Shown one piece after another: positions 34,241-62,951 of a stretch of 64,000 bases of DNA (position 1 is the first letter of the stretch; each line of letters opens with the position of its first letter). A model generated the notes under the pieces. That model made no database searches and was not told where the DNA came from. It saw only the letters and a list, made by a program, of their open reading frames with translations. The DNA is from Fimbriimonadia bacterium (GTDB taxonomy: Bacteria; Armatimonadota; Fimbriimonadia; Fimbriimonadales; JABRVX01): contig JBGPGO010000007.1 in assembly GCA_041483895.1 (NCBI GenBank), forward strand, positions 1 through 64,000. The letters run 5' to 3'. Made by a program: the position numbers and the translations under genes.

Positions 34241-34263
34241 TTGACACCTTTTTTGACACGCTT
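34241..34263 (+). promoter_or_regulatory. Putative integrase arm-type site pair (TGACAC-N6-TGACAC)
   Basis: TTGACACCTTTTTTGACACGCTT; the same doublet recurs at 35866, 61446 and 61680. Confidence 0.7.
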
Positions 34264-36319: not shown

Positions 36320-36373
36320 ACGCTACTCTTCATCACGAGGAAATGGGCCGAGGTGATAAACTGTCAATTAGCT

Positions 36374-36823
36374 TCATCTTTCCCTTTTGAGGAATAAGAT
36401 ACTCCACAGACAATAGCCGAAAAGTACAAAGGCAGGTATCCCAAGGAGAGCCACTACAGATGTGTCTCTCGAGGGGGTCTCCGAGAATGCAGTCAATTGC
36501 ATCGCGTACAAAATCTCAATTATGGCTACTGGGAAGCACAGGACAAAAGCAGTAATGGGTCCCCAAGCCCGCTCTCGTTGAATTCCGATTCCTGCTATCA
36601 TGAGGCCGACGCCCCAGCTCGATAATAATAGTCCGTTTGCGAGGCCGAATCCGGAAGAAAGCCCAAAGATGGGATTAACACCTGTTGCGAGTGCAGTCCA
36701 AATCATCAGAATGTTCCAACTGACACCGATCAGCATGGCTAATAGTCCAAAGATAGTCGAGTGCCTAGAGAAATCGATTTGCTTTGACAACGGCTCCCCT
36801 TTAGGTCGTGAAGACGACCCCAC
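36374..36823 (-). CDS. Small 4-TM protein, putative RHS immunity protein
   Basis: Lies directly downstream of, and overlaps, the RHS toxin; function inferred from position. Confidence 0.6.
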   Translation of the reverse strand: MGSSSRPKGEPLSKQIDFSRHSTIFGLLAMLIGVSWNILMIWTALATGVNPIFGLSSGFGLANGLLLSSWGVGLMIAGIGIQRERAWGPITAFVLCFPVAIIEILYAMQLTAFSETPSRDTSVVALLGIPAFVLFGYCLWSILFLKRER

Positions 36824-37877: not shown

Positions 37878-38030
37878 TATGCCTTCTCCTCCAGCAGGTC
37901 TTCCCCGTCCCAGATCATGGTTCGGATTGTTGTCCCCGGTTCCTGCTTCGTCCTTCGCTTTCCATCCCCGGCGTAAGTATGGCTGCTCCGGGTCCCGCCG
38001 ACATACAGGATCGACACTTGCCGGTCTGCA
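37877..38030 (-). pseudogene. RHS fragment upstream of the core, in a different frame
   Basis: HTYAGDGKRRTK....RTMIWDGEDLLEE; its 5' part is cut off by the next gene. Confidence 0.7.
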
Positions 38031-38034
38031 TGCC

Positions 38035-40206: not shown

Positions 40207-40630
40207 CCTCAGCGCGGAGGCAACCGGCGCATTGGAGCCGCCGCGTATCCCGCCTCACCGTGTCCGGTGCGTAGGCCATGGCCTCCACGGCCGCCACTCC
40301 GCCCGGCCAGGCCGCCTTTGCCCGCAACCCGAAACTGGGCGATCAAGCCGTTCACAAGATCGATGCGTTTCAAACGATTGGTAGGGCGAAGATGGAATTG
40401 GTGGTGCGACGTGGAAAGGCGTGCGTGTCGGCAGACGCCAAAATGGCTTCGGCACCATCCAGCGCCTCTACCCACTTTGGCAAGCACGCCATAAGATTGA
40501 GGGCCGGCGCGCCGAGCAGCCAGATCCCCATGCCGGTCCATCCCACAACAAGCACAGAGACGGTGGTTTCAGATTCTTAGGCTGAAAAGAAGGCAGTGCC
40601 AACCACACCGGCTCGGGCGACCGCTGACTC

Positions 40631-43600: not shown

Positions 43601-43666
43601 CCCCGGTGTCGCGAGAACCGCAACGAGAGCCAGCACTGATCCGACCTGTCCAAAACGTATCTGCAT
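40631..43666 (-). CDS. Secreted alpha-galactosidase-like (GH27/36 clan) multidomain protein
   Basis: FDAFMIELW, RFPNGF, YGVWW, VLKFDG; galactose-binding-like insert (VFVNGQEI). Confidence 0.65.
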   Translation of the reverse strand: MQIRFGQVGSVLALVAVLATPGLATGPRTRNAGATAKESPKCEVGLNGNALQMRSPSFVFELDTAHGLRATAWINRLTGKKLALGNNPELQLDLDASDRRIPITGWRIIDTGYKPCGPDEEHGYGVKAYLPEHDDTSWSGQTTVLLPSQKESGLFDEYRWARTHVFLPRDAEGKAVTLVLGGFGLFDYRYMRVFVNGQEIAVRRTQGRWPEPGQFVLTPKSAGYRCLRFGRENIVALQLSGYVARTKELDAVDPMKLHSLENSFCWPPQFEQYVLIGKHTITPSMKVVKVETISQGAAGECRVHLSSAQPALRATVIYRWKIAEPVLHKFVSIVNKGRSTRRVLNVRLARYVTSAEVSDGDQGFPVYLDGQFFASLAHPSGWAMGENGTVRLRQYPGRALSPGQRLDCMETVLGVAPAGKARQAFLAHVKSRMRRVVRGHDRPYAIFETFGSWPSGDYWGGTEADNLYLVAKMQESEKETGCCFDAFMIELWIDRNGDLERPDPKRFPNGFAPIKRALNRIPYGVWWDTANYWWSITGNPVASDSLNSDRSYGLGDRVIFCEAEGLYEEMLRSAALSHLKSGARVLKFDGNCPICYNPHHGHLAGVYSTEAINDSIIKTLDILDQACPEALLMLYWGHRSPWWLLHADTLFEPGFWIEAASPSDSPSLYARDSVTLVLDQAQAYCADVPPLGKDSLGVWLSNWGFNSSIGKERWQEGTVMDMCRGSLLLQPWSDRDWMTQPERKQFADFAALMRANPKCFANPVRVLGDPWKHEPYGYLCSDGARAFVALNNCTWQNVELPLPAVKGVSGVYQWYPTQAFLGSTTQSPKIALSPFEVVLLELVPAGGKPSLGREFTRNEQSQRFAEPSVDLPVRVEPIAPEKAPSPPVDQDKVQRPKRALLVECTVPATKAGGIVAVTVEMHRNEMVVPVGNVGNLFAAAGTVDGAEVRLAPILGQWTFPSPWQGWRLVLGPDERPRKVQLRVTAVIAADVEVTCRAHFVPAIREAVERQP

Positions 43667-43971
43667 ATCAGCCAACGTTACCAGAATCCGGCGGTTGGCA
43701 TGTTCGAGGGTGGTCAAGCGCCCCCCTACGATGTCGTTGTTGCAGTTCCTGGCTCGCGAAGGCATTCAATCAATCGGTACCCGGTCGTTACCAGCAGCGT
43801 CGCGCTAGGAGCGATGGACGCATCGGCTCGTCAGATCATGTTCCTCCATTCCACATAAAGTGAACTTGTAGAGGCGGACCGCCACTAAGATTCGACCACA
43901 ACTCCCCGCCATCAAGAGGATGCATGACTCCGATAGAGAAGGGTGTTTCGTCTGATGAGGAGGATGACCGC

Positions 43972-46758
43972 TTGAGTTCGCTCCATTCGCGCACCATCGT
44001 TGCCTTTTTGGCTGTCTGCGCTTTCGGCCAATCCCTCACTCCGTATCGGGACATGCAAGATATGCCGAAGGCGCTCCGGGCGTACCCGGTTGCGATGCCA
44101 AGGGACATATCGTTTGAGGCGGTAGTAAAGAGCCAACCGTTTCCGGCGATGAAGTACCCGGTGCCGATCATCGGTTGGAAGGAGCATCCCGAGGAGGTGC
44201 ATGTGACGCCGAACGGGGCCCTAGTCTTTCCTCGTCCGGGAGTCCCACGAGGTCTGTACCTGACTCCATTTCTCGGCGACGCACCGTTTTCGTTGGAGAA
44301 GGTGAATCGGCACCTTGTTGACGGCTACATGCCAGGCATCGAGAGTGAGTGGTCGGTCAGTGATCTTCGCGTGCGGCAGCTTGCCTTTTGCACGTTGCTC
44401 GGCAGTGACACAGTGAAGACCGGACGGGAGCCGTTGGTCGCGTTCACTCGCTATCGTGTCGAAAATCCATCCAAGAAGAGCCGCACGGTACGACTTTGGC
44501 TGAATTTTGGGGAAGCGGTCATGGGGCAAAGCATGGCCTCGGTACCACCGCCCTATCTGCGAACCCTTCGCTTCCAGAGACCGTTTGTGATGGAGCCCGA
44601 AGATACGGTTGCCGCCTGTGTTTTATCTCATGGCAGGGTCGGTTTCCGTCCCCTCTCGCTACCAACCCGGACTGATGACTCTCGTTACACGACCATCAAT
44701 GTACATGGCGAAGCCATGGGGCCGGACGTGCCCATCGACGTCGTGCGCGAGGGAGGTGCGGTGCGAGTAGGCAGGTGGAGATCGGAGCGCGGCTTCGATG
44801 TCCACATGGAGGCGTCCATGGGCCACAGCGTGCCGGTCGCGGCCGAAGTGGACATCGTATCGCCAGGTGGTGAGATGATCCATCTTGGCACCCTGTATCG
44901 CGGCGGGCTGTCCGAGACCAAGCGGGGCGAATTCATCAAAGCGGGTGAGCACTCTGCACCCATTCCGTGGTCCCTGCTTGCGTCCGTGTTGCCCCAGGGT
45001 CCCAGCAAAATCGTGGTCCGAGGCAGGTATCCGGTGGGTAACGCGGTCGCGCCAGTCGGATCGTGGGAATCAACATTCTATGTGACCGAGCCGGGAGTTC
45101 CGCCAAATTTCAAGCGACCCCTTCGCGGTGATAAGACAGAAAACAGCCTATTTGTCGATCTGCCTCTTCCGCCAAGCGGGTCAGCCACTGTGGACATCGC
45201 CATCCCGTACTTTCCGCTTGCCCGATCTGCCGCAGCCAAACTCGCTAGCCTCAATCTCGATCATGAACTGAGGCGCTTCCGACGTTATTGGGAGAAGGAA
45301 CTCAACCGAAACGCTGAGTTCATCGTGCCCGAAAAGCGAATACGTGACTCCGTTCGCGCCTGCCTTGCGAACAATCTCATACTGACGGATCACGATCCCA
45401 AGACCGGCCTCCTTTTGATGCATCCGGATGCAACCGCTTACGAAAGTGTCTGGGCCGGTGACAGCGGAGTCATCCTGCAGGCAATGGACCGAATGGGCTA
45501 TCACGCAGAGGCGGCGAGTTGGGCGCGGTTCTTTCTCCGCTACCAGGGCACGCGCAGGCCGGACGGGGCATCGAAGAGCGTCGACGGTTTCTACACCGGG
45601 AACGCCGGACCCCGATGGATGTGTGAGAACGGCTTCATCCTCTGGGCTCTTTCGGAACACTACAAACTAACCCGTGACGCACGGTGGCTTCGAACGGTTG
45701 CGCCGAGCATGATAAAGGGATGCGACTGGATTGTTCGCGAGCGGGCCGCCACCAAAGGCGATCCGGATGCCCGCCACTACGGGTTGTTGCCGAAAGGTGC
45801 GCCATCCGATATCGGGGTTTGGGACTATTGGTACTGGACGGACACCTACTCCTACATGGGCTTGCGCGGTGCGGCGGATGCGCTCGCTGATATCGGGATG
45901 GCTTCTGAAGCGAATCGGTTGAGAACGGAGGCCGAAGACTATAAGACGTGCATACGGCGTTCCGTCGAACGGTCCATCGTTAGGGAGGTCTCCCCGCCAT
46001 TTATCCCACCCAGTCCGTACACGAATCAGCCGCCAACCTTCGACCGTCTGGCGTCGTGGTGGTACTCCATCTGCAGCCCCATCTACATGGTGGAAGCAGG
46101 CCTCCTCAGCAAGTCCGAACCGTGGACGGCGGACATCGAGTATTGGCTGGAACGATACGGGTTGTATTCCGGACTGTGCGCGTTTGGCGGCGGATTGGTA
46201 GACCCACATTACGTGTACAACCAATCGCTGGTTCAACTGCTTCGCGGCGAGACGGACAAGTTCCTCTGGACGTTCTACAGCCTCTTCGCCTATGGCCAGT
46301 CGAGGGACACCTACGCAACCATTGAAGGAATGAACCTCTTGACCGGCTCCAACGGCGATGATTGGGCGGCCAACCGCCAGCCGCACATGCACTCGAACAG
46401 CCGGGTGCTGGACATGGTTCGAATCGCGCTTGTTTTGGAGGAAGGGGACATGCTGCATCTGATGGCGGGGACCCCAAGGGCATGGCAGGCTTCAGGAAAA
46501 GTGATCGAGGTGCGAAAAGCCCCGACCTACTTTGGTGACGTGGGCTTCAGAAGCGTGTCGTACGGCAAACGGGTCCGTGTGACGATCCAGCCGCCCACCC
46601 TTCGCGCGGCGAAACTGGTCGTTCATATTCGGCCACCTTCCACGGTTGGACCAATCCGTTCCGTCACAGTAAACGGAAGGCCATGGAAGCAGTTCCAAGA
46701 CGAAAAAGTGATGCTTGGTGCGCGGCGCTCTAAAACCACCGTCGTATGCAGATTCTAG
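43972..46758 (+). CDS. Secreted six-hairpin (alpha/alpha)6 glycosidase-like protein
   Basis: YESVWAGD, LWALSEHYKLTRD..WL, YGLLP, PHMHS, APTYFG; TTG start after GAGGAGG. Confidence 0.7.
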   Translation: MSSLHSRTIVAFLAVCAFGQSLTPYRDMQDMPKALRAYPVAMPRDISFEAVVKSQPFPAMKYPVPIIGWKEHPEEVHVTPNGALVFPRPGVPRGLYLTPFLGDAPFSLEKVNRHLVDGYMPGIESEWSVSDLRVRQLAFCTLLGSDTVKTGREPLVAFTRYRVENPSKKSRTVRLWLNFGEAVMGQSMASVPPPYLRTLRFQRPFVMEPEDTVAACVLSHGRVGFRPLSLPTRTDDSRYTTINVHGEAMGPDVPIDVVREGGAVRVGRWRSERGFDVHMEASMGHSVPVAAEVDIVSPGGEMIHLGTLYRGGLSETKRGEFIKAGEHSAPIPWSLLASVLPQGPSKIVVRGRYPVGNAVAPVGSWESTFYVTEPGVPPNFKRPLRGDKTENSLFVDLPLPPSGSATVDIAIPYFPLARSAAAKLASLNLDHELRRFRRYWEKELNRNAEFIVPEKRIRDSVRACLANNLILTDHDPKTGLLLMHPDATAYESVWAGDSGVILQAMDRMGYHAEAASWARFFLRYQGTRRPDGASKSVDGFYTGNAGPRWMCENGFILWALSEHYKLTRDARWLRTVAPSMIKGCDWIVRERAATKGDPDARHYGLLPKGAPSDIGVWDYWYWTDTYSYMGLRGAADALADIGMASEANRLRTEAEDYKTCIRRSVERSIVREVSPPFIPPSPYTNQPPTFDRLASWWYSICSPIYMVEAGLLSKSEPWTADIEYWLERYGLYSGLCAFGGGLVDPHYVYNQSLVQLLRGETDKFLWTFYSLFAYGQSRDTYATIEGMNLLTGSNGDDWAANRQPHMHSNSRVLDMVRIALVLEEGDMLHLMAGTPRAWQASGKVIEVRKAPTYFGDVGFRSVSYGKRVRVTIQPPTLRAAKLVVHIRPPSTVGPIRSVTVNGRPWKQFQDEKVMLGARRSKTTVVCRF

Positions 46759-47573
46759 CCTTTCAGCGCCCCTGCCACCATGCTCTCATAGATTCGATCG
46801 CGCAGGATCCAGTAGATGATGAGAATCGGCGCCATCACGATGGCAAGCCCGGCAAACAGCGCTCCCCAATCGCTTTGGTAGTGCTCCACCATGACCAGGT
46901 TCGCGATGCCAAGTGGCAAGGTGCGATTTTCTTCACTCACAATCAAGACGAGAGCGAGTGGGTACTCGTTCCAAAGTCCAATGGCGTTGAATACCGCCAC
47001 TACCAAGAGGCCGGGCCTGGCGAGGGGGAGCATTACACGCCAGAACACCGTGGCATGTCCGCCGCCATCGATCATCGCTGCCTCCCCCAATTCCGCCGGC
47101 AGCGAATGGAAGAAGCCGGTAAGAACGAAGATGGTAAACGGCAAAGAGTAGGCTACGTAGACAAGCACCAGGCCTGGAAGCGAATCAAGCAAACCGAGCG
47201 TGTTCATCAGAAAGAACAGCGGCACAATCGCAAGGAATATCGGGAACATCATGCCACCGAGAAAACCGGTGAACAGCCAACTACTGCCGGGGAACGGGTA
47301 CCGTGCGAAGACGTAGGCCGCCATTGCGCCGCATGGTAGGAGAATAGTCAGCGTTGCGAGCGTGACGAAGACGCTGTTGAGGAAGTAGCGGGCAATGCCG
47401 GCCTCCTCCCACGAGCGAACGTAGTTGGACCATTGTGGCGACTTTGGGATTCCCCAAGGCGAGGCGAAGATTTCCGGCGAAGTTTTCAGCGACGTGACCA
47501 ACACCCACAAAAGCGGAATAACAACAGAGAGCGCAAATAGGAATAGGAGGAATTTCGTTATAGTGCGGATCAC
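46755..47573 (-). CDS. Carbohydrate ABC permease (NgcG-like)
   Basis: EAAMIDGG EAA loop; WNEY; TLPLGI. Confidence 0.93.
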   Translation of the reverse strand: MIRTITKFLLFLFALSVVIPLLWVLVTSLKTSPEIFASPWGIPKSPQWSNYVRSWEEAGIARYFLNSVFVTLATLTILLPCGAMAAYVFARYPFPGSSWLFTGFLGGMMFPIFLAIVPLFFLMNTLGLLDSLPGLVLVYVAYSLPFTIFVLTGFFHSLPAELGEAAMIDGGGHATVFWRVMLPLARPGLLVVAVFNAIGLWNEYPLALVLIVSEENRTLPLGIANLVMVEHYQSDWGALFAGLAIVMAPILIIYWILRDRIYESMVAGALKG

Positions 47574-48461
47574 TTACGTCCTCGCGCCTTGCGGATCGCG
47601 GCGGAAGGCGGCGACCACCATCCCACTAAGCAGCAGCACGACAACCAGGTTTGCCACAGCCAGGGCGGTCGCGAATCCAAAATCACTATTCTTGAACGCC
47701 TGCTCATAGAGATACGTCAGCATCACTTCAGTGTGGCGATCGGGTCCGCCTTGCGTCATGAGAAAGACAAGGGCGAAGATATTGAGCGCATTGATCACAA
47801 GGTAGATCATAGCTACTCGCAATACAGCCCAAAGCATGGGCAGCGTCACTCGCCAGAGCAGAGCAAGGCCATGTGCACCGTCTAGCGTTGCCGCTTCCCG
47901 CACCTCATCCGGGATGGTCTGCAGACCCGCAGAAAACAACATAATGTAGAAGCCAAGAGCATGCCAAACAAACGCGACTCCGACCGCAGGCAGCGCCGTA
48001 CCCGATGTTCCCAACCAGGGGACCGCCAGCTTTTCAAGTCCGACGTTGCGCAGTGTCGCGTTCATGATGCCAAAGGATGGGTTGAAAATGAACATCCATA
48101 GAATTGCGACGACGACCAGTGGCGTGACTTGTGGAAAGAGATATACTCCGCGCAGAACCCGAGCCGACCGGCTGTTGCCTCGAACGCCATGTGCGATGGC
48201 AAGGGAGAGAACGAGAATTATGCCGCCCGCGCCTATCAGCAGAGCAAGGTTGTGGGCAAGCGATTGCCAGAACACCGGATCTCCGAAGAGGCGCGAGAAA
48301 TTGTCGAACCCGACGAAAACTCGAACTTGAGAAACGCCTCTCCAACGATAGAGGGACATGAGGAAGGCTTGCGCAACGGGCCAAATGACAAAGAGAAGAT
48401 AAAGTGCTGTCGCAGGGAGAAGAAAAGTAACTATGAACCCGAAACGTCGGCGTTTAGTCAC
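47574..48461 (-). CDS. Carbohydrate ABC permease (NgcF-like)
   Basis: FVGFDNF, EAATLDGA, GGPDRHTEV. Confidence 0.93.
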   Translation of the reverse strand: MTKRRRFGFIVTFLLPATALYLLFVIWPVAQAFLMSLYRWRGVSQVRVFVGFDNFSRLFGDPVFWQSLAHNLALLIGAGGIILVLSLAIAHGVRGNSRSARVLRGVYLFPQVTPLVVVAILWMFIFNPSFGIMNATLRNVGLEKLAVPWLGTSGTALPAVGVAFVWHALGFYIMLFSAGLQTIPDEVREAATLDGAHGLALLWRVTLPMLWAVLRVAMIYLVINALNIFALVFLMTQGGPDRHTEVMLTYLYEQAFKNSDFGFATALAVANLVVVLLLSGMVVAAFRRDPQGART

Positions 48462-49773
48462 GCACAACCCGATGCTTGGGGATGCTTGCGTCTTGCCGCA
48501 CTTTCTCGGCGGCATCCTCCGCGCGCCGCACAAACTGCTCCGGTGTGGCTTCACCGTTGAGCAGTGCGGTCATCGCGTTTTCCAGTGCCTTGCCGACCGA
48601 CGGATACCATTGTGTGAACTGGATTGACCATACTGCCTTTGAGTTGCGAAACGCGGCAGCGGCCCCTGTAAGGTAGGAAGGAATGTTCGTTTGATCGCTG
48701 CCCCGAACGGACATCAGCGTGCCCTTTTCGGACACAAACTGCTTCGCCTTTTCCGGCGTTGTAAGGTATTTATAAAAATCGATCGCGATGTCCCGATGTT
48801 TTCCCTTTGACGGCACGACCCACGGTTCGATGCCGATGCAGATCGCGGTTGGATCGCCGGTTCCTCCCGCGACGATCGGGGGTGGCATATACTGCATTTC
48901 GAATCGGGGTGGCAGTTGCTTGCTCATCTCTGAGTGTAGCCATGTGCCGCAGGGAATCATTGCCGCGCGCCCGCCGACAAATTCCATCTGCGCTTCAGTG
49001 TGGCTCATCCCAACGGCGCCCTCTTGGAAGAATCCCCGGTCCCGCAACTGCTTGATCATCTTAGCAGCCTGCAAGAATGCCTGAGACTTCCAAGCGCCGG
49101 GTCGCAGCTCCTGTGCCGCGTTGAATGCTTCGACACCGCCGATGCTGATCGCCCAAGGATACAGGAGGCCGGTGAGAACGTATTGCGGATACTTGCCCTG
49201 GAAAGTGATTGGCGCGATGCCCGCGGCCTTGATCTTGTCGCAAAGCGCCAGCAGCTCTTCGAACGTCTTTGGCGCGCTCCAACCGTGGTCCGCAAACAGC
49301 TTTGGGTTGTACCACCAACCCATAACGTTGAAAAAGTATGGGAGCATGTATCGCTTACCATCGTACTGGCCCATCGTCATGAGAGATGGTTCGAACGCAT
49401 CGATCCACTTTCCCTTACCGTCGTACGCAGGCGTGGCGAGGTACTCATCGAGAGGGATCACTTGGTCTTCGTAAATCAGGGACCAATAGTCCATGTCCCA
49501 GCCCGGCCAGGTGAGATCCGGTGGGGTTCCGGCGACAAATCGTGGACGGAGCTGCTCCCAGATCCTGGGGTTGCCCCAGACGCGCAACTTGACGTTTGGG
49601 TGCTTTGACTCATACTCGCGCGCAGCCGTTTCGAAGAAGTCGATCCCGTAGCCGCCTTGAAAGAGCGCAACCTCAACATCCGCGCCGGATCCGGATCTGG
49701 CTTGCTTCTCACTGCAGCCGGCAAGGCAAAGGCAGGCAAGGACAGTGGCGAGCAATCGGCATTGTTTGGTCAC
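48454..49773 (-). CDS. Sugar ABC substrate-binding lipoprotein (NgcE-like)
   Basis: LAGC lipobox; VALFQGGYG, FVAGTPPD, MIPCGTWL. Confidence 0.9.
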   Translation of the reverse strand: MTKQCRLLATVLACLCLAGCSEKQARSGSGADVEVALFQGGYGIDFFETAAREYESKHPNVKLRVWGNPRIWEQLRPRFVAGTPPDLTWPGWDMDYWSLIYEDQVIPLDEYLATPAYDGKGKWIDAFEPSLMTMGQYDGKRYMLPYFFNVMGWWYNPKLFADHGWSAPKTFEELLALCDKIKAAGIAPITFQGKYPQYVLTGLLYPWAISIGGVEAFNAAQELRPGAWKSQAFLQAAKMIKQLRDRGFFQEGAVGMSHTEAQMEFVGGRAAMIPCGTWLHSEMSKQLPPRFEMQYMPPPIVAGGTGDPTAICIGIEPWVVPSKGKHRDIAIDFYKYLTTPEKAKQFVSEKGTLMSVRGSDQTNIPSYLTGAAAAFRNSKAVWSIQFTQWYPSVGKALENAMTALLNGEATPEQFVRRAEDAAEKVRQDASIPKHRVVRD

Positions 49774-49959
49774 AGGGCAGCTTTCGGCATATGCAGAAGC
49801 AGGTCCTGCGTCCGGTGCATGCTCCAAATATTGGCCCTCGATGGGAGCTTTGCAATCAGATTGGTCGCACTGCGGTGTGTGTCGCGGGTTGGTCCGGTCC
49901 AGAGAGGGCGCGACAGACTTTGGAGCACATGGAATGCGTGGCTCAGCGGTTTGGGTCAG

Positions 49960-50265
49960 CTTCCGGGCAGTGGCGACGGTCTGTTTTCGTTGCCCGCGCC
50001 TGTCGGGGTGTTGGACTTGTCGGTGAACGGGACGCATTGGCTGCGGCGGACCGTTGGCGAGTTCAACACGACCGGCGGCAACGCGAGCATGGGAACTGTA
50101 CCGCTGATCAACGGCGACGCACACGAAGACAGCATCGTCGATCTGTTCGACTTGGTCCTGATCCTCCTCGACTTCGCCACCGCCGGCCCAACCGGCGACG
50201 GAAGCGTCGACCTGTACGAACTTTCCATCGTTCTCGCCAACTTCAGCATGATCGACGAACCGTAG
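49960..50265 (+). pseudogene. Orphan C-terminal dockerin-like domain fragment
   Basis: THWLRRT...LINGDAHEDSIVDLFDL...GDGSVDLYELSIVLANF; no credible 5' gene. Confidence 0.7.
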
Positions 50266-50313: not shown

Positions 50314-51249
50314 TCACGCCAGCTCGGACAGCAGTCGGCTCGTCCTGCCCGGCAGGTGTTCCCGTGCATCGTCGTAGATCATCAGCGTCTCCAGTTTGGA
50401 ATGGCGGCTGAGCTTCTGCGCGCCGCGCACGTCGCCGTTGGTGGCGTGGAGGTAGGCGGTGATGCTGGTGTGCCGCCACTTGTGCGGACTGAAGTTCTGG
50501 ATGCCGGCCTTCTTGGCATAGTGCTTTACCATGAACGCAAGGCCGACGCCGGTGATGCCGGATGGCTGGCCGGCGCAAGAGAGGAACAGTTCCGGTCGGC
50601 TATCGTTCCGACATGCGAGGTAGTCGCCGATCGCTTCTATGGCCTTATCGCTCAGTGTCATCAGCACCTTCTGAGTCCCTTTGCCTTTGCCACGGACGGC
50701 TAGCGTCTTCGCATCCGGATCGAAGTCGGCCTTCGTCAGATTGCAGATCTCCTGCCTGCGAAGCGCCAGTTCCCAGAACAACCGGAGGATCGCCGCATCG
50801 CGCTTCCCCTTGACGGTAAAGGTGTTCGGCAGCATGAGCATCGCGGCCGCAGCGTCCTTGTCCACGCCCCTGGTGTCTCGATACTGCATTGTCTTCTCGC
50901 CCGGCACCAGTCCCTGCGGATTGACTTCCGTCAGCCCAAGCTGCCGCGCAACGCTCAGAAGCGAGCGGATGGCCGTTAGCCGACGATTGAGGGTCACCTC
51001 CGCCACGCCTTGCTCGATCTGCTGCATCTTGAAGGTGAGCATCGCCCGAACGACGCCGGTCGTCTCAAGCTTGAAGAACGCTCCGATTGTCTGCGGCGTT
51101 GGCTCGCTCCTGGCCACGACCCGGAAGAACAGCCCTAGATCCCGCTGGTAGGCCAGCCTCGTGACTTCGCTCCGCTTGGACTTCAGAAGGAACTCCAGTG
51201 CATCCGGCGCCACCGGACTCGGTTCTGTAAGTTTGAGTTCAATTGCCAT
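50314..51249 (-). CDS. XerC-like tyrosine recombinase / resolvase
   Basis: TRLAYQRDL, TLNRRLTAIRS, LALRRQE, GKG, PHKWRH, SRHS, IY; AGGAGG RBS. Confidence 0.93.
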   Translation of the reverse strand: MAIELKLTEPSPVAPDALEFLLKSKRSEVTRLAYQRDLGLFFRVVARSEPTPQTIGAFFKLETTGVVRAMLTFKMQQIEQGVAEVTLNRRLTAIRSLLSVARQLGLTEVNPQGLVPGEKTMQYRDTRGVDKDAAAAMLMLPNTFTVKGKRDAAILRLFWELALRRQEICNLTKADFDPDAKTLAVRGKGKGTQKVLMTLSDKAIEAIGDYLACRNDSRPELFLSCAGQPSGITGVGLAFMVKHYAKKAGIQNFSPHKWRHTSITAYLHATNGDVRGAQKLSRHSKLETLMIYDDAREHLPGRTSRLLSELA

Positions 51250-51263
51250 GGTCCTTGCCTCCT

Positions 51264-51295
51264 TTGGTATCGAAAAGGGCCATTATCGATACCAA
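51264..51295 (+). other. loxP/dif-like site S1: TTGGTATCGAAAA-GGGCCA-TTATCGATACCAA
   Basis: 13-6-13 palindrome abutting the recombinase RBS. Confidence 0.85.
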
Positions 51296-51411
51296 CACCA
51301 CATGTACTCGAGGGCTCCCACAGAAGTCCAGGCCGCGTGTAAGTGTCGATAGAAGTAAGTCGGTCGGCACGGATCGGGGGCATCCGGGGAATCCTACGCA
51401 ACAGAATGACG

Positions 51412-52737
51412 TCAAATGTCGATCTTGCTGCCAGATGTTGGCGCGATATCGAGGGCGAGTTCGATGGCCTGCTCCATTGTCAGCGCGCGTCCTTCCTGCC
51501 AGGCGGACGCGAAGGCTTCTTCGCCCAGAGCGGCGCGCGCGTCGGCGAGCTGAACGTCATGGCGGATGCGATCGTTCGGCGACAACGGTGAACCGCTTTG
51601 CACCCGCATCACCTCGACCGCGCTCCACAAACGCGCGGCCCGCGCCGCCTCCCCTTTCGAAAGCCAGAGAGCGGCAAAGGCCTGAAGCGAGTGTCCGATG
51701 AAGAAGGGGAGCCCAATTTTGCGAAGAATCGCCAAGCTCTGCTCATGCAGTTCTCTCGACGAGCCGAAGTCGCCCCGCTGTTGCGCGACGATTCCCAATT
51801 CGAGGAGCATGACCCCTATTCCCGGCCGGTCTCCAACCTCTCGCCGAATGGTCAAGCTTTCCTCAAAGAGGGCGCGCGCCGATTCGTAGTCGCCCCGTTC
51901 TTTTGCGATAATCCCTAGGTCGCCAAGCGAGTCCGCGATCCCGCGCCTGTCTCCCACCTCTCGCCGCAAGGTCAGGCTCTCTTCATAAAGCGCGAGCGCC
52001 GACTTCTGGTCGCTATGCGCTCTTGCGATGCCTCCAAGATTGTTGAGAGTGACCGCGATGCCCCGCTTGTCACCCAATTCTCGATAGAGCGACAGGCTCT
52101 CTTCATAAAATTCTCTCGCCGGCCCTAGATCGCCTTGCCGGCTGTAGGAGTTGCCCATATTGTTCAGAGAGCCGGCTATGCCCACCTCATCCCCTATCTC
52201 GCGAAAGACCGACAGGCTCTCCTCAAAGAGCGTCCGGGCTGCCCCATTGTCGTCCTGGAAGTGAGCCAAGCCGCCCGCCCCGTTCAACGCCTTCGCTCTC
52301 GCGGCCGTGCGACATCCACTTTCGTCCCCGGACAACACGATTCCGACCCGCTCGCGCCCCTCAACCAGATGCCCACGCACGGACCAGAAACGCCACAAGG
52401 CCCCAGCGAGACGCAGGGCCTCGGCGTCGTTCCGCAGCTCAAGGACTGATCTGAGGTTGTCATGATCGGACTCCAGTCGTTCCAGCCAAGCAGCCTGCTC
52501 CAGCCCCGTCAACTGCGGTTCCGCTTCCTCCGCCAGCGTCAAGTAGAAGCCACGGTGCCGGTCCCGAACGGCCTCGCCCTCGCCGCTCTCGAACAGACGA
52601 TCCCGCCCATACTGCCGCACGGTCTCCAATAGCCGATAGCGCGTCTGCCCGTTATCCTCTTCGGTCACAACGAGATTCTTGTCGACGAGGGAAGCGAGGA
52701 TTTCGCCTGCCTCGAAGGAGTCGATTGGCCCGCTCAT
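51412..52737 (-). CDS. Winged-helix + TPR sensor module 2 (C-terminal part of a STAND protein)
   Basis: LVDKNLV..RYRLLETVRQY, HDNLR, SLNNMG/TLNNLG TPRs, GRALTMEQAIELAL. Confidence 0.88.
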   Translation of the reverse strand: MSGPIDSFEAGEILASLVDKNLVVTEEDNGQTRYRLLETVRQYGRDRLFESGEGEAVRDRHRGFYLTLAEEAEPQLTGLEQAAWLERLESDHDNLRSVLELRNDAEALRLAGALWRFWSVRGHLVEGRERVGIVLSGDESGCRTAARAKALNGAGGLAHFQDDNGAARTLFEESLSVFREIGDEVGIAGSLNNMGNSYSRQGDLGPAREFYEESLSLYRELGDKRGIAVTLNNLGGIARAHSDQKSALALYEESLTLRREVGDRRGIADSLGDLGIIAKERGDYESARALFEESLTIRREVGDRPGIGVMLLELGIVAQQRGDFGSSRELHEQSLAILRKIGLPFFIGHSLQAFAALWLSKGEAARAARLWSAVEVMRVQSGSPLSPNDRIRHDVQLADARAALGEEAFASAWQEGRALTMEQAIELALDIAPTSGSKIDI

Positions 52738-54041
52738 GCCTCGTTCGCCTCTAATGCGAATTCAACAGCTTGTTCTGTCGTCATGAGGCGGCCCTCCTGC
52801 CATGCCTGGTAGAATGCGGCATCGTCTCCCATATCGGCCCGGGCTGAGCTCACGCGTCGATCGTACTTCGATATTTCGCACGGCATTAGGGGTGATCCGA
52901 TCTCTTTGCGTAGACGTTCCGACGCGCCCCAGATTTGGGCGGCTCGAGGAGGATGGGCGAGTGGCGCCAGTTGTTCCAGCGAGCCGGCGATGCCCCTCGG
53001 ATCACCAAGTTCCTGCCATATTTTCACACTCTCCTTGAGTAGCTGCTGTCCAGCAATGCGGTCATCCAGTTCTCCTGCCACAGCACCAAGGCCTTGAAGC
53101 GCATTGGCGATTGTCCGCCGGTCGCCAAGGTCCCGAGCGATGGTCAGGCTTTCAGATTGCAGCGCTTCGGACATCGAGTACTCGCCACGATGCAAGGCCA
53201 CAAACCCTAGGTTGCATAGCGCCATGGCAATACCCAACCTGTTGCCGGCTTCCCTCATGATCGCCAGGCTCTCCTGATGCATGGTCCAAGCGGTTGGGTA
53301 ATCGACCTGCTCGGTGGCCATAATGCCGAGGTTGCCCAGCGCAACAGCAACGCCATACCGGTCATCGAGTTCTCGAAAGATCGCGAGGCTCTCCTCGAAC
53401 ACGGCTCGCGCATTCAGATGATCGCCCTGTGCCTTCGCCACATTCCCGAGACTGTTCAGTGAAACGGCAACCCCGAGACGGTCGCCGAGTTCCCTCCTGA
53501 TCGCCAAGCCCTCTGCCAACAGCTCTAGAGCGGCTGTATAGTCGCCTTGCTGTGAGGCCAACGAACCGGCGCCGTTAAGCGCCAATGCACGGACCGACCC
53601 AGATTGTCCGCCCGGTTCGACAGCCAGAAGTCCGGTGAGCCAATCACGTCCTTCGCTGATATGCCCACGGATCCACCAGAATCGCCAGAGAGCACCGGCC
53701 AGCCGGAGGCCCAAATCATTTCCGTCACATTGCTCGCGGCACCATTTTAGAGCCGACCGAAGGTTGTCATGCTCTATTTCGAATCGTTCCAGCCAAACCC
53801 CCTGGTCGGGCCCCGACAACTGGGGCACGGCTTCTTCCGCAAAGGCCAGAAAGTTATCTCTGTGTTTAGTCCGCCACTCATCGCTCTCACCGGTCTCCAA
53901 CAAACGCTCTCCTGCGTACTGTCGCACGGTTTCCAACAGACGAAAGCGCGTATGTCCACCTTCCTCTTCAGTCACAACCAGATTCTTGTCGACAAACGAG
54001 CCGAGTAAGTCAAGGACTTCCCGGGTTTCTATGGCGTTCAT
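52734..54041 (-). CDS. Winged-helix + TPR sensor module 1 (C-terminal part of a STAND protein)
   Basis: FVDKNLV..RFRLLETVRQY, HDNLR, TPRs, GRLMTTEQAVEFAL. Confidence 0.88.
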   Translation of the reverse strand: MNAIETREVLDLLGSFVDKNLVVTEEEGGHTRFRLLETVRQYAGERLLETGESDEWRTKHRDNFLAFAEEAVPQLSGPDQGVWLERFEIEHDNLRSALKWCREQCDGNDLGLRLAGALWRFWWIRGHISEGRDWLTGLLAVEPGGQSGSVRALALNGAGSLASQQGDYTAALELLAEGLAIRRELGDRLGVAVSLNSLGNVAKAQGDHLNARAVFEESLAIFRELDDRYGVAVALGNLGIMATEQVDYPTAWTMHQESLAIMREAGNRLGIAMALCNLGFVALHRGEYSMSEALQSESLTIARDLGDRRTIANALQGLGAVAGELDDRIAGQQLLKESVKIWQELGDPRGIAGSLEQLAPLAHPPRAAQIWGASERLRKEIGSPLMPCEISKYDRRVSSARADMGDDAAFYQAWQEGRLMTTEQAVEFALEANEA

Positions 54042-54042
54042 T

Positions 54043-55509
54043 TCACTCCGGATCCGAGCAGACGGATTCGGCTGCTTCGAGCGTCCAGCCGCCCGAGAAA
54101 ACGGACAGCCTACGCAACATCGTTTGTTCCTTCTCGCTCAGCAGGTCGTAGCTCCAGTCGATCAGCGCGCGCAGGGTCTGTTGTCGCGGCAGTGCGGTGC
54201 GGCTGCCGCCGGTGAGGAACCGGAAGCGGTCGTGCAGCCGATCATTGATTTCCTCCACCGAGAGCGCCCGCACCCGCGCCGCCGCAAGTTCGATTGCGAG
54301 CGGAATGCCGTCGAGATGGTGGCACAGCGAGACTAGCGCCGGCGCGTTTGCATTCGTTATCTCGAAGTCTAGGCGTGCCATGCGGGCGCGGTCGATGAAC
54401 AGTTGCGCCGATGCGAATTGCGAGAGCCGCTCGATCGTGTACGTCTGCTTCGGGTCCGGAGTCTCTAGCGAAGGGACTCGGTAGCTTTGCTCGCCCGTGA
54501 TGCCCAACGCCTCGCGGCTGCTGGCTAAGATCTTCACGCCAGGACATGAGCGAATAATTGCGTCCGCGACCTTTGCGCATTCTTCGAGCAGGTGCTCGCA
54601 GTTATCGAGCACGAGCAAGAGATTCTTTTTCTTAAGCCACTCGACCAGCGTCTGCGAAATCGATTTGCCTGGCTCTTCCTTCGCCCCCAGCACGTTTGCC
54701 ACTGCCTGCGGGACCAGATTAGGATCGCTGAGAGACGCCAATTCCACGAGCCATACTCCATCTCCGGTGCCATCCAGGAGATCGGCCGCTACCTGCACCG
54801 AGAGGCGGGTCTTTCCGCAGCCGCCGGAGCCGGTGAGCGTAACGAGGTGATTGGTTTCGACGAGACTTTTGACCTCCTCGACCGCCTTCTCGCGGCCGAT
54901 GAGCGAAGTGGTTTGTTGGGGCAGGTTGTTGGGGAGCTCGGGGTTGTTGAGTGAGCGCAATGGCGGAAAATCGTCTGGTAGATCAGGGTGTAGGAGTTGA
55001 AACACCGTCTCCAACCGCCCCAGGTCCTTCAGGCGGTGCTCGCCCAGATCTCGGAACATCACGGATTCCGGCAGGTTGTCGCGACACAGGTCGTAGGCCA
55101 CGCCAGAAACCAGGGTCTGACCGCCGTGTCCGATCGCGAGTAGCCGGGCGGTGCGGTTCAGCGGCTGGCCAAAGTAGTCCTCGTCGCGGAATTCGACTGC
55201 GCCGGTGTGCAATGCCATGCGAACTTTGATAGGTGTCCCTTCTGCCCACGGCTCCGATACCATTGCAAGCTGGGCGGCGAGAACCGCGGAGACCGCTTCC
55301 GGCGCCGTCGCGAACGCCGCGCAAAATGCGTCTCCAACTGTCTTGAAGATATGGCCCCGCGCGGCCGTTATGGCATCCCGAATCAGGGAGTCGTGACGAG
55401 CAACGGCCAGACGCATCTCTTCGGGTTGTGCCTCCCAGAGAGTTGTGCTCCCCTCGATGTCCGTGAACAAGAAGGTGACGGTACCGAAAGGAGGCTGTGC
55501 TGGGCTCAT
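54043..55509 (-). CDS. Class III adenylate/guanylate cyclase + NB-ARC/STAND NTPase (ends before the winged-helix/TPR part)
   Basis: TFLFTDIEGST, KTVGD, YFGQPLNRTAR; GSGGCGKT, LLVLDNCEH, LDGIPLAIELAAAR. Confidence 0.92.
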   Translation of the reverse strand: MSPAQPPFGTVTFLFTDIEGSTTLWEAQPEEMRLAVARHDSLIRDAITAARGHIFKTVGDAFCAAFATAPEAVSAVLAAQLAMVSEPWAEGTPIKVRMALHTGAVEFRDEDYFGQPLNRTARLLAIGHGGQTLVSGVAYDLCRDNLPESVMFRDLGEHRLKDLGRLETVFQLLHPDLPDDFPPLRSLNNPELPNNLPQQTTSLIGREKAVEEVKSLVETNHLVTLTGSGGCGKTRLSVQVAADLLDGTGDGVWLVELASLSDPNLVPQAVANVLGAKEEPGKSISQTLVEWLKKKNLLLVLDNCEHLLEECAKVADAIIRSCPGVKILASSREALGITGEQSYRVPSLETPDPKQTYTIERLSQFASAQLFIDRARMARLDFEITNANAPALVSLCHHLDGIPLAIELAAARVRALSVEEINDRLHDRFRFLTGGSRTALPRQQTLRALIDWSYDLLSEKEQTMLRRLSVFSGGWTLEAAESVCSDPE

Positions 55510-55697
55510 GTCTCATTGTACTCCTTGCTACTGAGCGATACGAATGAAACGAGCAACCACGGCGCTTATTCAGCGACGAGGTCCTTCCGGGGCAGATTGG
55601 ATAGTTACCGAGCGTAACAATTCCCGATTTAAGCTTTAGGGCCGTCGTGAAATGGGCTCTCGAAAGAGACTTCTTAGGAGTCGTCCTCCTTGGCCTT

Positions 55698-55727
55698 ACC
55701 TATCGATAACGTCCATTTTCGATAGGT
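55698..55727 (+). other. loxP/dif-like site S2: ACCTATCGATAA-CGTCCA-TTTTCGATAGGT
   Basis: 12-6-12 palindrome with the same core as S1. Confidence 0.85.
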
Positions 55728-55764
55728 TGACCGTCGTGGCAACGGACCGTGGTCCAACCCGGCG

Positions 55765-56120: not shown

Positions 56121-59100
56121 TTAAGCCACCGCCCATTCACTACTCAAAGCCTCAGCTTGCTCCAAGACAGTCTGCGTCGCTTTCTCCTGCTTATCCGGCG
56201 GGTAGCCGTACTTGCGCAGTATCCGCTTGACAATCAGCCGCAAGTGAGCGCGGACGTTCTCACGGATGGTCCAGTCGATGGTCACGTTCGCCCGGACAGC
56301 CGTTACAAGTTCCTGCGCGATTGTCCGCAGCGTATCGTCGCCCAAGACCTTGACGGCAGAATCGTTCGTCTCCAAGGCATCGTAGAAGGCCAGCTCGTCC
56401 TCGGACAGCCCCATCTTCTCACCACGCGCCTCTGCTTCGCGCAGCTCCCGCGCTAGCTTGATCAATTCTTCAATGACTTGCGCAGCCTCAATCGCCCGGT
56501 TCCGGTACTTCCGAAGCGTGTCCTCAAGCATCTCGGCAAACGAACGCGCCTCTACCACATTCTTGCGCCCGCGCCTGCCAATCTCCCCCGCCAACAGTTT
56601 TCGAAGAAGCTCAACCGCCAAGTTCCGTTGCGGCATGTTGGCGACCTCAGCCAAGAACTCATCGGACAGGATCGATATGTCCGGCTTTTCCAGACCGGCG
56701 GCGGCGAAAACGTCCATTACCCCCTCGGATGCAATTGCTCGCGAAACGATCTGCCGCACCGCATGGTCGATCTCTTCTTCCGTCCGCGCCCGATCTGGAT
56801 CACCCTTGGAAAGCGCCGCCGCGACCGCCTGGAAGAACGCTACGTCGTCTCGAATCCGTAACGCCTCAGGATGCGGCACCGAAAGCGCAAACGCCTTCGA
56901 CAGATCCCGCGCCGCGCGCACGAACCGCTCCTTCCCATCCTCTTGCGCCAAGATGTGTTCCTGCGCTCCGGGGAGAAGGCTCAGCCGCTCACTGGGAGAC
57001 TGCGACATCCATGCCGACCAGTCGAATCCATGGAACATGCCGCAGCAGATCTCGTACTTCTCCAGCATGACGGCAACCGCTTCGTCCTGATCTAGAGCCG
57101 GTGCGCCGGTCCCACCGCTCTTGGTGTAGGTGGCCAGCGCTTGTTTCAACTCATGCGCGATACCGAGATAGTCCACCACCAACCCACCGGGCTTATCTTT
57201 GAACACCCGGTTCACCCGCGCGATTGCCTGCATCAGGCCGTGCCCGCGCATCGGCTTGTCCATATACATCGTGTGCAATGACGGCGCATCGAATCCCGTC
57301 AGCCACATATCGCGCACCAGCACGATTTTGAACGGATCGTCGGGATTGCGGAATCGATTAGCGAGCTTCTCGCGACGGCCCTTGTTGCGGATATGCTCCT
57401 GCCAATCGACAGTGTCGCTTGCCGAGCCGGTCATCACGACCTTCATGGCGCCCTTATCGTCGTCCGAGTTGCCCCACTCGGGTCGCAACTTCACAAGCTC
57501 TCCGTAAAGCTCGACGGCGATTCTGCGGCTCATGCACACGATCATCGCCTTGCCTTCCATCGCGTCAAGCCGCTGCTCATAGTGCTGAACGATGTCCTCG
57601 GCGATTAGCCGGATGCGCTTCTCCGACCCAACAATGGCTTCTAGCTGCGCCCATTTCGTCTTTAGCTTTTCCTTCTGCGATATCTCCTCGCCTTCGGTTA
57701 CCTCTTCGAACTTCGGATCGATCCTGGGCCGCTCTGCTTCATCGAGTTCGAGCTTCGCCAGCCGACTCTCGTAATAGATCGGCACGGTTGCCTGGTCCTC
57801 GACCGCCTGCCGAATGTCGTAAATGCTCATGTAGTCATCGAACACCGCCCGCGTATTCTTGTCTGTCAGTTCGACCGGTGTTCCGGTAAAGCCGATAAAC
57901 GATGCATTTGGCAGTGCGTCGCGCATATGGCGGGCGAACCCATCAATGAAATCGTACTGGCTCCGGTGCGCCTCGTCCGCGATGACGACGATGTTGTGCC
58001 GGTCCGATAGGACAGGATGCTGATCGCCTTTGTCTTCCGGGAAGAACTTATGGATCGTCGTGAACACGACTCCGCCGGCATTCACCGACAGCTTCTTCCG
58101 CAGGTCAGCGCGATCGGTCGCCTGAACCGGCGGCTGGCGCAGCAGTTCCTGGCAGGCGGAAAACACCCCGAACAGCTGATCGTCAAGATCGTTCCGATCC
58201 GTCAGAACGACCAGCGTCGGATTCTCCATCGCAGCTTCAGTAATAACGCGAACGGCATAGAAAGCCATCGTTAGGCTCTTGTCGGACCCTTGCGTGTGCC
58301 AGACGACGCCAATCCGCCGATCGCCCGGTTTGCCTCCTGCCTGGTGCTTTGCCATATAGCCGCTCTTCTGCTCCCGCACAACGTCCGTCCGCAATTGCGC
58401 CGTGCGAACCGTCTCCTCTATCCCAACATTGACAGCGTGAAACTGGTGGTATCCCGCCATCTTCTTGACGATCTTGCCACCGCCCGAATCTTCGAAGACG
58501 ATGAAATGCCTGAGCATCGAAAGCAGACGGCGTTTCTCGAAAATTCCTTGGATGACAACTTGCAATTCCGGTAACCTCGAATCCGCAACGCTATCTCCCG
58601 TGATCGCCTTCCACGGCTTGAACCACTCCTTCCCGGCGCTGAGGGTGCCGACGCGCGCCTGTAAACCATCGGAGATGACGAGCAGTTCGTTGAAAGAAAA
58701 GAGCGTCGGAAGCTCGGCCTTGTAAGTCGGAATTTGGTCATATGCCGTCCAGATGGTGGCATTCTCATCGGCGGCGTTCTTCAGTTCGAAAAGAGCAATC
58801 GGCAGTCCGTTGATGAAGACGACAATATCTTGTCGTCGGGTGTGCTTATTCTCAACGACGGTGTATTGGTTAACGGCCAGCCAGTCGTTGTTATCCGGAT
58901 TGTCAAAATCTATGATCCGAGCCTGCTCCCCCTTGATCGTTCCGTCGGCTCGCTTGAATTCCACGGTGACGCCGTCCACCAACATTCTGTGCAAGGCGCG
59001 ATTTCTTGTCTCGACCGTCGTTCCTTCGCTGCGGGCAATTTTCCGAAAGGCATTCTCAATTGCATCTACCGGCAGCGACGGGTTCAAAGTGACCAGTGCT

Positions 59101-60753: not shown

Positions 60754-61212
60754 TCATATGACTTCCGCAACTGCCCGCTCAGCATCGGCGATTCGGATCT
60801 TGCCAGAAATCAACTTTGGCACCAAGGTATCACGCAGAGTTGCAATGGTTCGTGACTCAAGGGCGTTTAAGACATATTTCGCCATGAGCGGTCCAATAAC
60901 GCCATCAAGAGCAAATATGTCCACTCGGACAAGCATATTGTCGCGCAGAAATGTCGCCTCGAAAATTGCCGGCACTTCGGTCGTCAGGATCTCGTGAGTT
61001 CTTTGGGCAGCATCCTCGTTCGACAACTCCCAAGTTGGTACGAGCACTCCACCCGGAAACAGTTCTTGCGCCAGGTTTCCGATGCGCTTCCCTGATTCCA
61101 TCCTTGCCTGTGTAGCGCTCGAAGGTGGAGCCTTCTCTTCCGGCATGTGGATTGTCATCCATAGTGCCTTCGGGCAGTTCTCGGCCGTAGTGAACAAAGA
61201 CTTTGTTAGCAT
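60754..61212 (-). pseudogene. Deletion fusion: DUF2779-like PD-(D/E)xK protein N-terminus joined to the HsdS C-terminus
   Basis: MLTKS...CPKALW...G..IG.LAQELFPGG...IFEATF...VRVDI, then ESRTIATLRDTLVPKLISGKIRI. Confidence 0.75.
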
Positions 61213-61443
61213 GAGTTCAACCATTCGCTCTCTAGCTCTAATACTCGATAAGTGACCCAGATTCCTTTTCGGCCCTCGTATGATTCCGACTGCCGCTTTC
61301 AAAGCTGCCACGCGACCACTTTCAGGAGCCAGAGACCAAGGTGGTTGAGCGATCAATGCGTTGGATAATAACGGGTGCTCGACTCGTTGACCACTCCGAT
61401 TCGTCCAATTCGGCGTCAGAAGTCCGCCAGCGTCCATCTGGGT

Positions 61444-61697
61444 GCGTGTCAAAATGAGTGTCAAGCGGTCGAAATTGCAGGTTGAAAGGTTACGTCAGAA
61501 GGTTACAATTAGCTTCAAAAACGGCTGGCTCCTCGGGTAGGACTCGAACCTACGACCCGCTGATTAACAGATGCGAGGACCGCCGTCCATTACGCGACAC
61601 TTACGTCCGATTAGCGCACATACGTCCGCGACATCGTTCCGTTATGTATCCATAAGTCCGTAGGCGTCCATTACAAAGCGTGTCAAATTGGTGTCAA
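61444..61697 (-). other. attP-like junction: 45-bp tRNA-Asn 3' core (61526-61570) with arm-type doublets on both sides, inverted relative to the tRNA
   Basis: Exact reverse complement of 34138-34182; GTGTCA doublets at 61446/61458 and 61680/61691. Confidence 0.9.
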
Positions 61698-61746
61698 CAG
61701 TCTTGGCCGCAGGGGCAGATGACGCTCACAGGAGAAATCGCAACCG

Positions 61747-61778
61747 CAGCTATCGATAATGGACGTTATCGACAGCTG
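61747..61778 (-). other. loxP/dif-like site S3: CAGCTATCGATAA-TGGACG-TTATCGACAGCTG
   Basis: 13-6-13 palindrome; the spacer is the reverse complement of the S2 spacer. Confidence 0.85.
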
Positions 61779-61781
61779 GCA

Positions 61782-62885: not shown

Positions 62886-62951
62886 GTGGACTTCTTCGCG
62901 ATCCCCCGAGTACATGTCGTTTTGGTATCCATGATGGCGCTCTTGATAGGT
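62886..62951 (-). repeat. Degenerate site S4 plus ~35-bp flank: inverted copy of the recombinase leader (51264-51330)
   Basis: TGGACTTCT..CGAGTACATGT.GT.TTGGTATC.AT.ATGGC.C shared with the reverse complement of 51277-51330. Confidence 0.75.

Follow-up and report, generated by a model that had tools for sequence, protein, structure and literature searches.

The sole tRNA-Asn gene of this genome most likely marks a locus of stacked tRNA islands in which an att junction has been inverted by a recombinase of the cargo modules, rec2 or its paralogue rec2'; of the explanations weighed below, this one accounts best for the locus as a whole. The window analysed here comprises 64,000 nt (C7:1-64000), and coordinates above 64000 refer to the same contig, C7, beyond the window. 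The assembly is of the metagenome type (3.95 Mb, 43 contigs, 95% complete).

The 3' part of tRNA-Asn (34138-34182) forms an attL core with the crossover region in the anticodon loop, and its copy lies on the opposite strand (Table 1). The two form an inverted repeat of 45 nt with 100% identity, 27,343 nt apart, and the copy begins exactly at the 7-nt anticodon loop. The original prediction, made from the sequence of the window, had described an exact 45-bp 3' copy on the opposite strand about 27 kb away, with doublets on both sides and inside the S2-S3 interval. All of these features were present, and S2 and S3 are inverted and share the spacer TGGACG. A second minus-strand tRNA-Asn, which would have explained the copy otherwise, was not found: the assembly, at 95% completeness, contains a single tRNA-Asn, and the 3' half of this gene recurs nowhere but at the copy itself. 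Four TGACAC doublets were detected in the window, compared with a mean of 0.03 in shuffled sequences (0 of 100 shuffles reached four), and six in the whole genome, five of them on C7. The gap between CCA and the doublet was 59 nt at tRNA-Asn and 62 nt at the copy, whose other doublet precedes the loop by 109 nt. The fifth doublet of C7, at 81767 (+), is identical to that at 61446 and is preceded by a direct 7-nt tRNA-Asn 3' end.

Table 1. Features of the tRNA-Asn locus (contig C7; positions of the window unless prefixed)
Feature	Position	Strand	Remarks
tRNA-Asn(GTT)	34107-34182	+	sole tRNA-Asn in assembly
Arm A	34242-34259	+	attL-type (P') TGACAC doublet of island 1; CCA+59
int1	34451-35638	+	tyrosine integrase, Tn916/Tn1549-like, N-terminal extension; catalytic R, K, HxxR, H, Y positions present
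Orphan doublet	35866-35883	+	arm-C-type half-sites in swapped order; RHS relic after it, no core; unexplained relic
Island 1 cargo	35909-50124		RHS relics, unknown ORFs, glycoside hydrolase-like gene, ABC sugar transporter
rec2	50314-51249	-	simple tyrosine recombinase without arm domain, 311 aa; catalytic motifs present
S1	51261-51298	-	dif/lox-like, spacer TGGCCC; inverted partner S4
Cargo 1	51412-55509	-	adenylate cyclase/NB-ARC/TPR gene, three ORFs
S2	55694-55731	-	dif/lox-like, spacer TGGACG
Orphan hsdR	56121-59087	-	short N-terminus; putative head of island 2, now inverted
152-aa ORF	60754-61212	-	ends in HsdS C-terminal fragment
Arm C	61437-61525	-	attL-type (P') arm of older island 2; doublet 61446-61463 at CCA+62
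tRNA-Asn 3' copy	61526-61570	-	exact, 45 nt; displaced tRNA half, junction core
Arm B	61571-61696	-	attR-type (P) arm of island 1; doublet 61680-61696, 109 nt before loop; motif as arm A
S3	61744-61781	+	dif/lox-like, spacer TGGACG; inverted to S2
Half-site relic	62887-62948	+	relic of rec2-adjacent left half-site; 81% like 51268-51330
S4	C7:66518-66555	+	spacer TGGCCC
rec2'	C7:66568-67515		85% paralogue, inverted relative to rec2

We searched 228 genomes of the order with a 25-nt pattern from the tRNA 3' half. Among the matches listed, all 20 adjacent pairs on the same contig and at most 100 kb apart, from 17 genomes, were direct; 16 consisted of a whole tRNA followed by a partial copy, three of two partial copies and one of two whole tRNAs. 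Left out of these counts were two pairs on opposite strands, separated by 228 and 448 kb, in which both members are whole tRNAs. The partial copies in relatives all retained the 7-nt loop and all lacked the 5' half. Six tRNA/copy pairs of relatives carried the same hexamer doublet twice, 57 to 60 nt after CCA at the tRNA and 99-110 nt ahead of the anticodon loop at the copy; TGACAC was used in three of them, each with an int1-like gene (34-36% identity) adjoining the copy. Further, tRNA-His att sites agreed in spacing (an attL in genome G001, an attR in genome G002). None of 21 partial copies in relatives carried both doublets, as the copy here does, and the copy here alone is inverted compared with the direct pairs; since the relatives share kinship, these counts of arms and orientation represent a pattern and not a statistical test. 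A TTTTGAACCTA-like motif after CCA was dropped as an attL marker, because in relatives it follows both tRNAs and attR copies. At a tRNA-Lys locus (L245, G374:C13:105827-105942), the tRNA 3' half is accompanied by an attL-type doublet and an ORF replaces the tRNA 5' half.

The inverted orientation of the copy and the doublets flanking it on both sides are not those of a simple attR, in agreement with the original prediction, which had read a two-armed junction here. The copy is chimeric, with an attR-type arm, a core and an attL-type arm, and these arms come from different elements. Arms A and B have one extended doublet motif in common; a different block, 28 nt long, occurs in both arm C and the arm at C7:81767. 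Positions 61437-61532 are 77% like C7:81698-81793, a match that covers the final 7 nt of tRNA-Asn; among 50 tRNA/tmRNA ends, only tRNA-Asn has this one. On the evidence of its arms, the copy is a tandem-island junction (attI) and not the attP of Int1 itself, because the two arms derive from different elements (B like A; C like the arm at C7:81.7 kb), and the second arm is of the C type, not of the A type. Of the two readings first proposed, an attP or a tandem-island junction, only the latter thus survived the match of arm C to the relic at C7:81.7 kb. The outer end of the second element (C7:81698-81793) is direct and is followed by the host OFOR/Nuo genes; its core is short and lends moderate support. 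In one respect the locus departs from an attI: the internal att is inverted, neither direct with the outer atts nor usable for excision. Taken alone, the att junction is ordinary tandem accretion.

Two minor features were noted in the arms. Inside arm C, a weak sigma70-like promoter match (61482-61509, +, 10/12; two in the region compared with 0.8 expected) faces across the core, and it could drive int from attP, since in canonical islands the integrase starts beyond the other arm. Arm B (61571-61680) contains two 9-mer copies identical to the S3 arm end plus spacer, possibly by chance (17 occurrences in the genome).

Island 1 is made up of arm A, int1, cargo and arm B. Int1 possesses the Pfam Phage_integrase and SAM_3 domains and, as in the IntTn916 subgroup, CB+CAT with catalytic residues. 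Its best solved match was 6en0 'Int protein' (E 6.6e-20), which we take to be Tn1549 Int. The N-terminal extension was conserved in six aligned homologues and had no significant Pfam match. An int1 search of metagenome contigs returned 79 loci, mostly distant (22-61% identity), none of which was used. In canonical relatives the integrase lies beside attR or is aimed at the tRNA; the placement of int1 differs, which suggests that island 1 itself was rearranged or is of another layout. Replication, relaxase and transfer families were not detected among the 59 ORFs of the window, and an HTH_17 excisionase was not detected on C7 (genome matches only on C3, C9, C26 and C11). The DNA of 36-55.6 kb, rec2 excepted, was not found in two genomes of the same family. 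The adenylate cyclase/NB-ARC/TPR gene (51412-55509) contains a 1307-nt internal duplication. Elsewhere in the window, a 36-nt inverted repeat followed by half an S-like arm (6661-6770) resembles a dispersed palindromic repeat family.

Island 2 extends from arm C to C7:81.7 kb, followed by the relic arm, and no integrase was found in it. Its tail begins at S3 (61744) and ends at about C7:81.8 kb, with the direct att relic about 20 kb to the right of the window; from C7:82.1 kb onwards come the core host genes OFOR and Nuo, which both same-family genomes have in colinear order. Contig C4 carries a sister island that begins with tRNA-Glu, resolvase, primase, hsdM, hsdS, hsdR, S(TGGACG), cargo and S(TGGCCC), and continues with a rec2 paralogue, an opposed S(TGGCGA), kdp, S(TGGTTC) and ParB/methylase; its terminus, a short tRNA-like end in direct orientation, is homologous to C7:81558-81721. 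From S3 to 81.8 kb, C7 follows the C4 gene order in the direction of the tRNA, and the C7 head (arm C, HsdS fragment, hsdR) is reversed between S2 and S3. This gene order argues for inversion of the hsdR block and the junction relative to their own island-2 tail, and it supports the inversion independently of the att copy, with the C4 island as a single template. A strain with the direct form was not found, and the pre-inversion state was reconstructed from this one sister island. The original prediction had proposed that related strains would reveal the true sequence downstream of the tRNA; the two same-family genomes were not syntenic at tRNA-Asn and provided no empty site. An hsdM was not found beside the hsdR/HsdS fragment of C7. 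The ORF with the HsdS fragment (60754-61212) has an unknown N-terminus and adjoins a PIN gene and the orphan hsdR.

The junction is nested in two inverted same-spacer pairs of S sites, S2/S3 (TGGACG) and S1/S4 (TGGCCC). A genome scan with the arms only yielded 26 sites, 24 of which had TGG at one spacer end. A PWM seeded on those sites gave 32 genome matches compared with 1-2 per shuffled genome; the matches were clustered, several beside tRNAs, and the one at C9:80607 (19 bits, within the shuffle range) was left out of the 31-site list. By these counts the S sites are real and polar, and the roughly 30 sites of the genome are probably the targets of a rec2-type simple tyrosine recombinase. 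Rec2 scored below all XerC/D/S cut-offs (110 bits, compared with a XerC cut-off of 335), and its nearest solved relative was an archaeal XerA-like protein; the closest named homologues were from Fimbriimonadia, and the host is presumably an Armatimonadota bacterium. The genome contains three whole rec2 copies and four fragments. Of 301 genomes of the phylum, 19 contained rec2; none of the 31 from the family behind most of the direct-island controls did. The S sites downstream of rec2 copies mostly point back at the gene.

In the known XerS/difSL arrangement, a dif-like site lies next to the gene of a simple tyrosine recombinase. Like such recombinases, rec2 encodes a CB+CAT protein of about 310 aa with an 11-6-11 site just upstream of the gene. 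Among its homologues elsewhere, many of them from cyanobacteria, the usual finding was a single imperfect 11-6-11 site about 60 nt upstream: the best repeat matched at 9 or more of 11 positions in 6 of 35 loci and in 0 of 35 in-gene controls, most of the remaining loci reached 8/11 at the same offset, and 34 of the 35 loci held one similar site. In contrast to these one-site loci, the present genome holds seven whole or fragmentary copies of the gene, and its sites, about 30 in number, form arrays. The exact S consensus had no match in G001 or G002, which possess their own arm variant with TGG-type spacers (three and two sites, respectively). A viral scan with the S consensus returned one locus, which was set aside as a palindromic site without TGG polarity. 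The accessible text of PMC8138268 distinguishes 'Cyan' and 'simple YR' groups of tyrosine recombinases.

The promoter-like left half upstream of rec2 is also joined to other spacers and cargo, a sign of past exchange. Within this half, two hexamers 17-18 nt apart are kept while the spacer drifts (51300-51345 and 62887-62948 in the window; C1:36305, C11:100269, C4:151709 and C1:195109 elsewhere in the genome). Further, rec2 and rec2' share a 74-nt identical run (50762-50835 and C7:66982-67055; p=0.0004 in codon-position shuffles), which is probably a product of gene conversion and suggests that homologous exchange also acted at the locus. A mid-gene mosaic of rec2 and rec2' was rejected, since the best breakpoints lay at the gene ends.

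From the observed anatomy, arm types, orientation anomaly, inverted same-spacer pairs and intact recombinase genes, we infer the following recombination history. The older island 2 would have integrated at tRNA-Asn and later lost its integrase, its order being arm C, hsdM/S/R, S(TGGACG), cargo, S(TGGCCC), recombinase, convergent S sites, ParB/methylase, a short att relic and host genes. Island 1 would then have integrated via Int1 at the anticodon loop, a well-supported step in which the tRNA was restored and the old tRNA half was displaced to the right end of island 1, creating the chimeric arm B-core-arm C. The recombinase/S module of island 1, lying in the opposite direction, would have placed two nested inverted same-spacer pairs round the junction, and rec2 or rec2' could then have recombined S2 with S3, or S1 with S4, and inverted the junction.

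Inverted attL and attR sites lead a tyrosine integrase to inversion, not to excision. Int1 would consequently be limited to inverting 27 kb. The original prediction had called the inverted state locked, which is imprecise: the island would be non-excisable, but Int1 should still be able to invert the 27 kb between its sites. If either flip were undone, a direct attR would result, and a circle of 21,767 or 22,108 bp without detected replication genes could be excised. Since the direct isomers would excise such a circle, the inverted isomer would keep its cargo, and survival of the non-excisable isomer would explain the arrangement without regulation. A second recombinase switching the island between excisable and locked states, as first proposed, agrees with the inverted same-spacer sites that bound the junction; a live switch is conceivable but found no support, as no alternative junction was detected among the contigs listed from four runs and no HTH_17 excisionase on C7. 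Because no alternative isomer appeared in the contigs of these shallow runs, a live switch explains the locus less well than an island trapped by inversion.

Besides the placement of int1 and the 74-nt run, two observations fit this history less well. The doublet at 35866 is unaccounted for in the two-island model, and the present symmetry of S2 and S3 (11/13 and 12/13) is higher than that of the flipped products (11 and 9), which is mildly against an S2xS3 exchange. The original prediction had taken this symmetry as an argument against a recent S2xS3 flip; it points mildly that way but is weak as a test, since the native mean is 8.8. Symmetric outer triplets occurred in 12 of 27 native sites, compared with 28% of random pairings. 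The prediction had also overlooked the outer pair, S1/S4, which flips the junction equally well and leaves S2 and S3 untouched; on an S1xS4 flip the symmetry argument is therefore silent.

Parts of the stretch were contained in 24 sediment runs, and the contigs of four runs (depth about 5; one run may be the source) were compared with the locus. Contigs without differences crossed S2 (run X3), S3 (X1 and X4), the arm C-core joint (X1) and the core-arm B joint (X4). The alternative orientation, restored attB and 27-kb inversion that the original prediction had suggested seeking were not found among the contigs listed, nor was any exchanged joint at an S site or the core, at a depth that drops rare forms. 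The sole opposite-strand joint (X3, inside rec2/rec2') was rejected as an isomer, as a contig of the same depth carried the alleles of the C4 paralogue at 6 of 6 listed positions. The local junctions are thus real, the global phasing is presumptive, and a live switch is conceivable though unseen in these contigs.

These contigs bear on whether the assembly itself misled us. An artefact in which the 45-nt core, the 33-nt S1/S4 run or the 74-nt run was resolved wrongly, the true island being direct, is conceivable for a metagenome-type assembly in 43 contigs, and none of the three repeats was bridged by a contig among those listed from the four runs. However, all three are shorter than a normal read, S2, S3 and both joints of the core were each crossed without differences, and the marker phase across the 74-nt run was consistent, so that an artefact is very improbable. 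The 74-nt run, together with a 50-nt run the longest identical runs of any paralogue pair, could also point to a RecA-type crossover between the inverted rec2 and rec2' that flipped a 16-kb block including the junction, with the S sites as bystanders. We consider such a crossover improbable: the rec2/rec2' pair shows no mid-gene mosaic, and rec2' resembles the C4 copy to either side of the run, at the 5' end as well as at a 12-nt indel, a pattern that agrees with conversion in the absence of a crossover.

The two events of the favoured history may instead, though this is rather unlikely, have occurred in the reverse order. An island-1 circle with its attP intact would have been captured backwards at an S site of island 2 by rec2, and Int1 would then have recombined attP with the tRNA site and inverted 27 kb. 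This order yields exactly the assembled end state; reversing the 27-kb core-to-core inversion makes S1-S4 co-directional, with one convergent switch as on C4, and arm B abuts S3, with 48 nt from the doublet to the site. Yet a free circle would have entered by a secondary route even though Int1 and its target were present, and direct Int integration is normal in relatives, where 16 of 16 tRNA/partial pairs are direct. Capture of a circle and accretion followed by a flip are the same two events in reversed order, with an identical sequence result. Finally, the copy might belong, as attR, to another island on the minus strand, with a tRNA-Asn located elsewhere or missing from the assembly, as its minus-strand order (ParB/methylase, S sites, rec2', S, arm B, core) resembles that of the C11/G001 island. 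This is highly improbable given the single tRNA-Asn of the assembly, the match of arm B to arm A, and the plus-strand tRNA-Asn 3' relic at the right end, a junction conserved with C4. Accretion followed by inversion through the S sites remains the reading we prefer.

Each ingredient of the preferred reading has a known counterpart, and the inversion of an attI by a cargo-module recombinase is the variant feature. Tandem accretion of ICE, IME and CIME elements with chimeric attI sites is known (ICESt1/CIME and IME_Sag2603_tRNAlys, in the accessible text of PMC5704250), as are Klebsiella composites at asn tDNA (accessible text of PMC4891358). As in the tandem elements described there, elements are stacked at a tRNA 3' end, the older one lacks an integrase and the junction carries the arms of two elements; in contrast to those descriptions, the present junction is inverted, the crossover is in the anticodon loop, the newcomer is tRNA-proximal and no conjugation genes were found. 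In Acinetobacter dif modules, one or three modules are inverted between inverse same-spacer sites, according to the accessible part of PMC13141974, which corresponds to the S2xS3 and S1xS4 exchanges, and 28-bp sites with 6-bp spacers bound cargo in both systems. The modules described in that part are plasmid-borne and served by host XerC/XerD, whereas the present sites lie in chromosomal islands with an element-encoded single recombinase, and their arms are near-palindromic, with polarity given by the conserved TGG of the spacer. Thus, 11-6-11 sites bounding modules with inverse identical-spacer pairs were found here, and distinct XerC/XerD arms were not.

The Mesorhizobium tripartite ICE3 comprises three sets of att sites and integrases, is under RDF control and carries transfer genes, as described in the accessible text of PMC5882170, where it is thought to have been born of inversions among single elements. 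It loosely resembles the present locus in having several recombinases and chromosomal states, with excision after a prior rearrangement. Unlike ICE3 as described there, the present locus, read from sequence alone, pairs a single integrase with a simple recombinase, its island yielded no RDF, and it lacks transfer functions; the RDF genes and conjugation module of a tripartite ICE had no counterpart in the HTH_17 search of C7 or among the window ORFs. In the mostly open-access literature, no report of an inverted attI arrangement or of a rec2-type site system was found.

The locus would be a natural case in which one mobile-element recombinase alters what another can do. Inversion by a cargo module would turn an excisable island into a resident, and att-finding tools restricted to direct repeats would miss such islands. 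The rec2 site system may be the larger prize, since a site that is normally single has multiplied in this lineage into arrays across the islands. It is possible, although doubtful, that rec2 forms with its roughly 30 TGG-polarised sites a working chromosomal counterpart of dif modules, served by a single recombinase. Such a system would shuffle cargo among tRNA islands, with 3-bp-homology exchange placing different cargo behind a fixed promoter-like half-site, and at tRNA-Asn it would reversibly gate Int1 excision. In that case there would be four S-site isomers, two of them excisable and each exporting different cargo (cyclase/NB-ARC/TPR or the 62-66 kb block). If active, the rec2 system would be a new gene-shuffling platform, a compact lox-like recombinase with natural spacer variants.

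Other islands with S-site arrays were located at tRNAs for Arg, His, Glu and Lys (C11:90000-142400, C1:36000-49150, C4:133800-170330 and C2:51800-61160, respectively). Short-range direct 3' duplicates of tRNA-Val, -Met, -Ala and -Leu (C3:68584-68622, C15:5163-5216, C28:6912-6945 and C2:158066-158088, respectively) point to further small islands.
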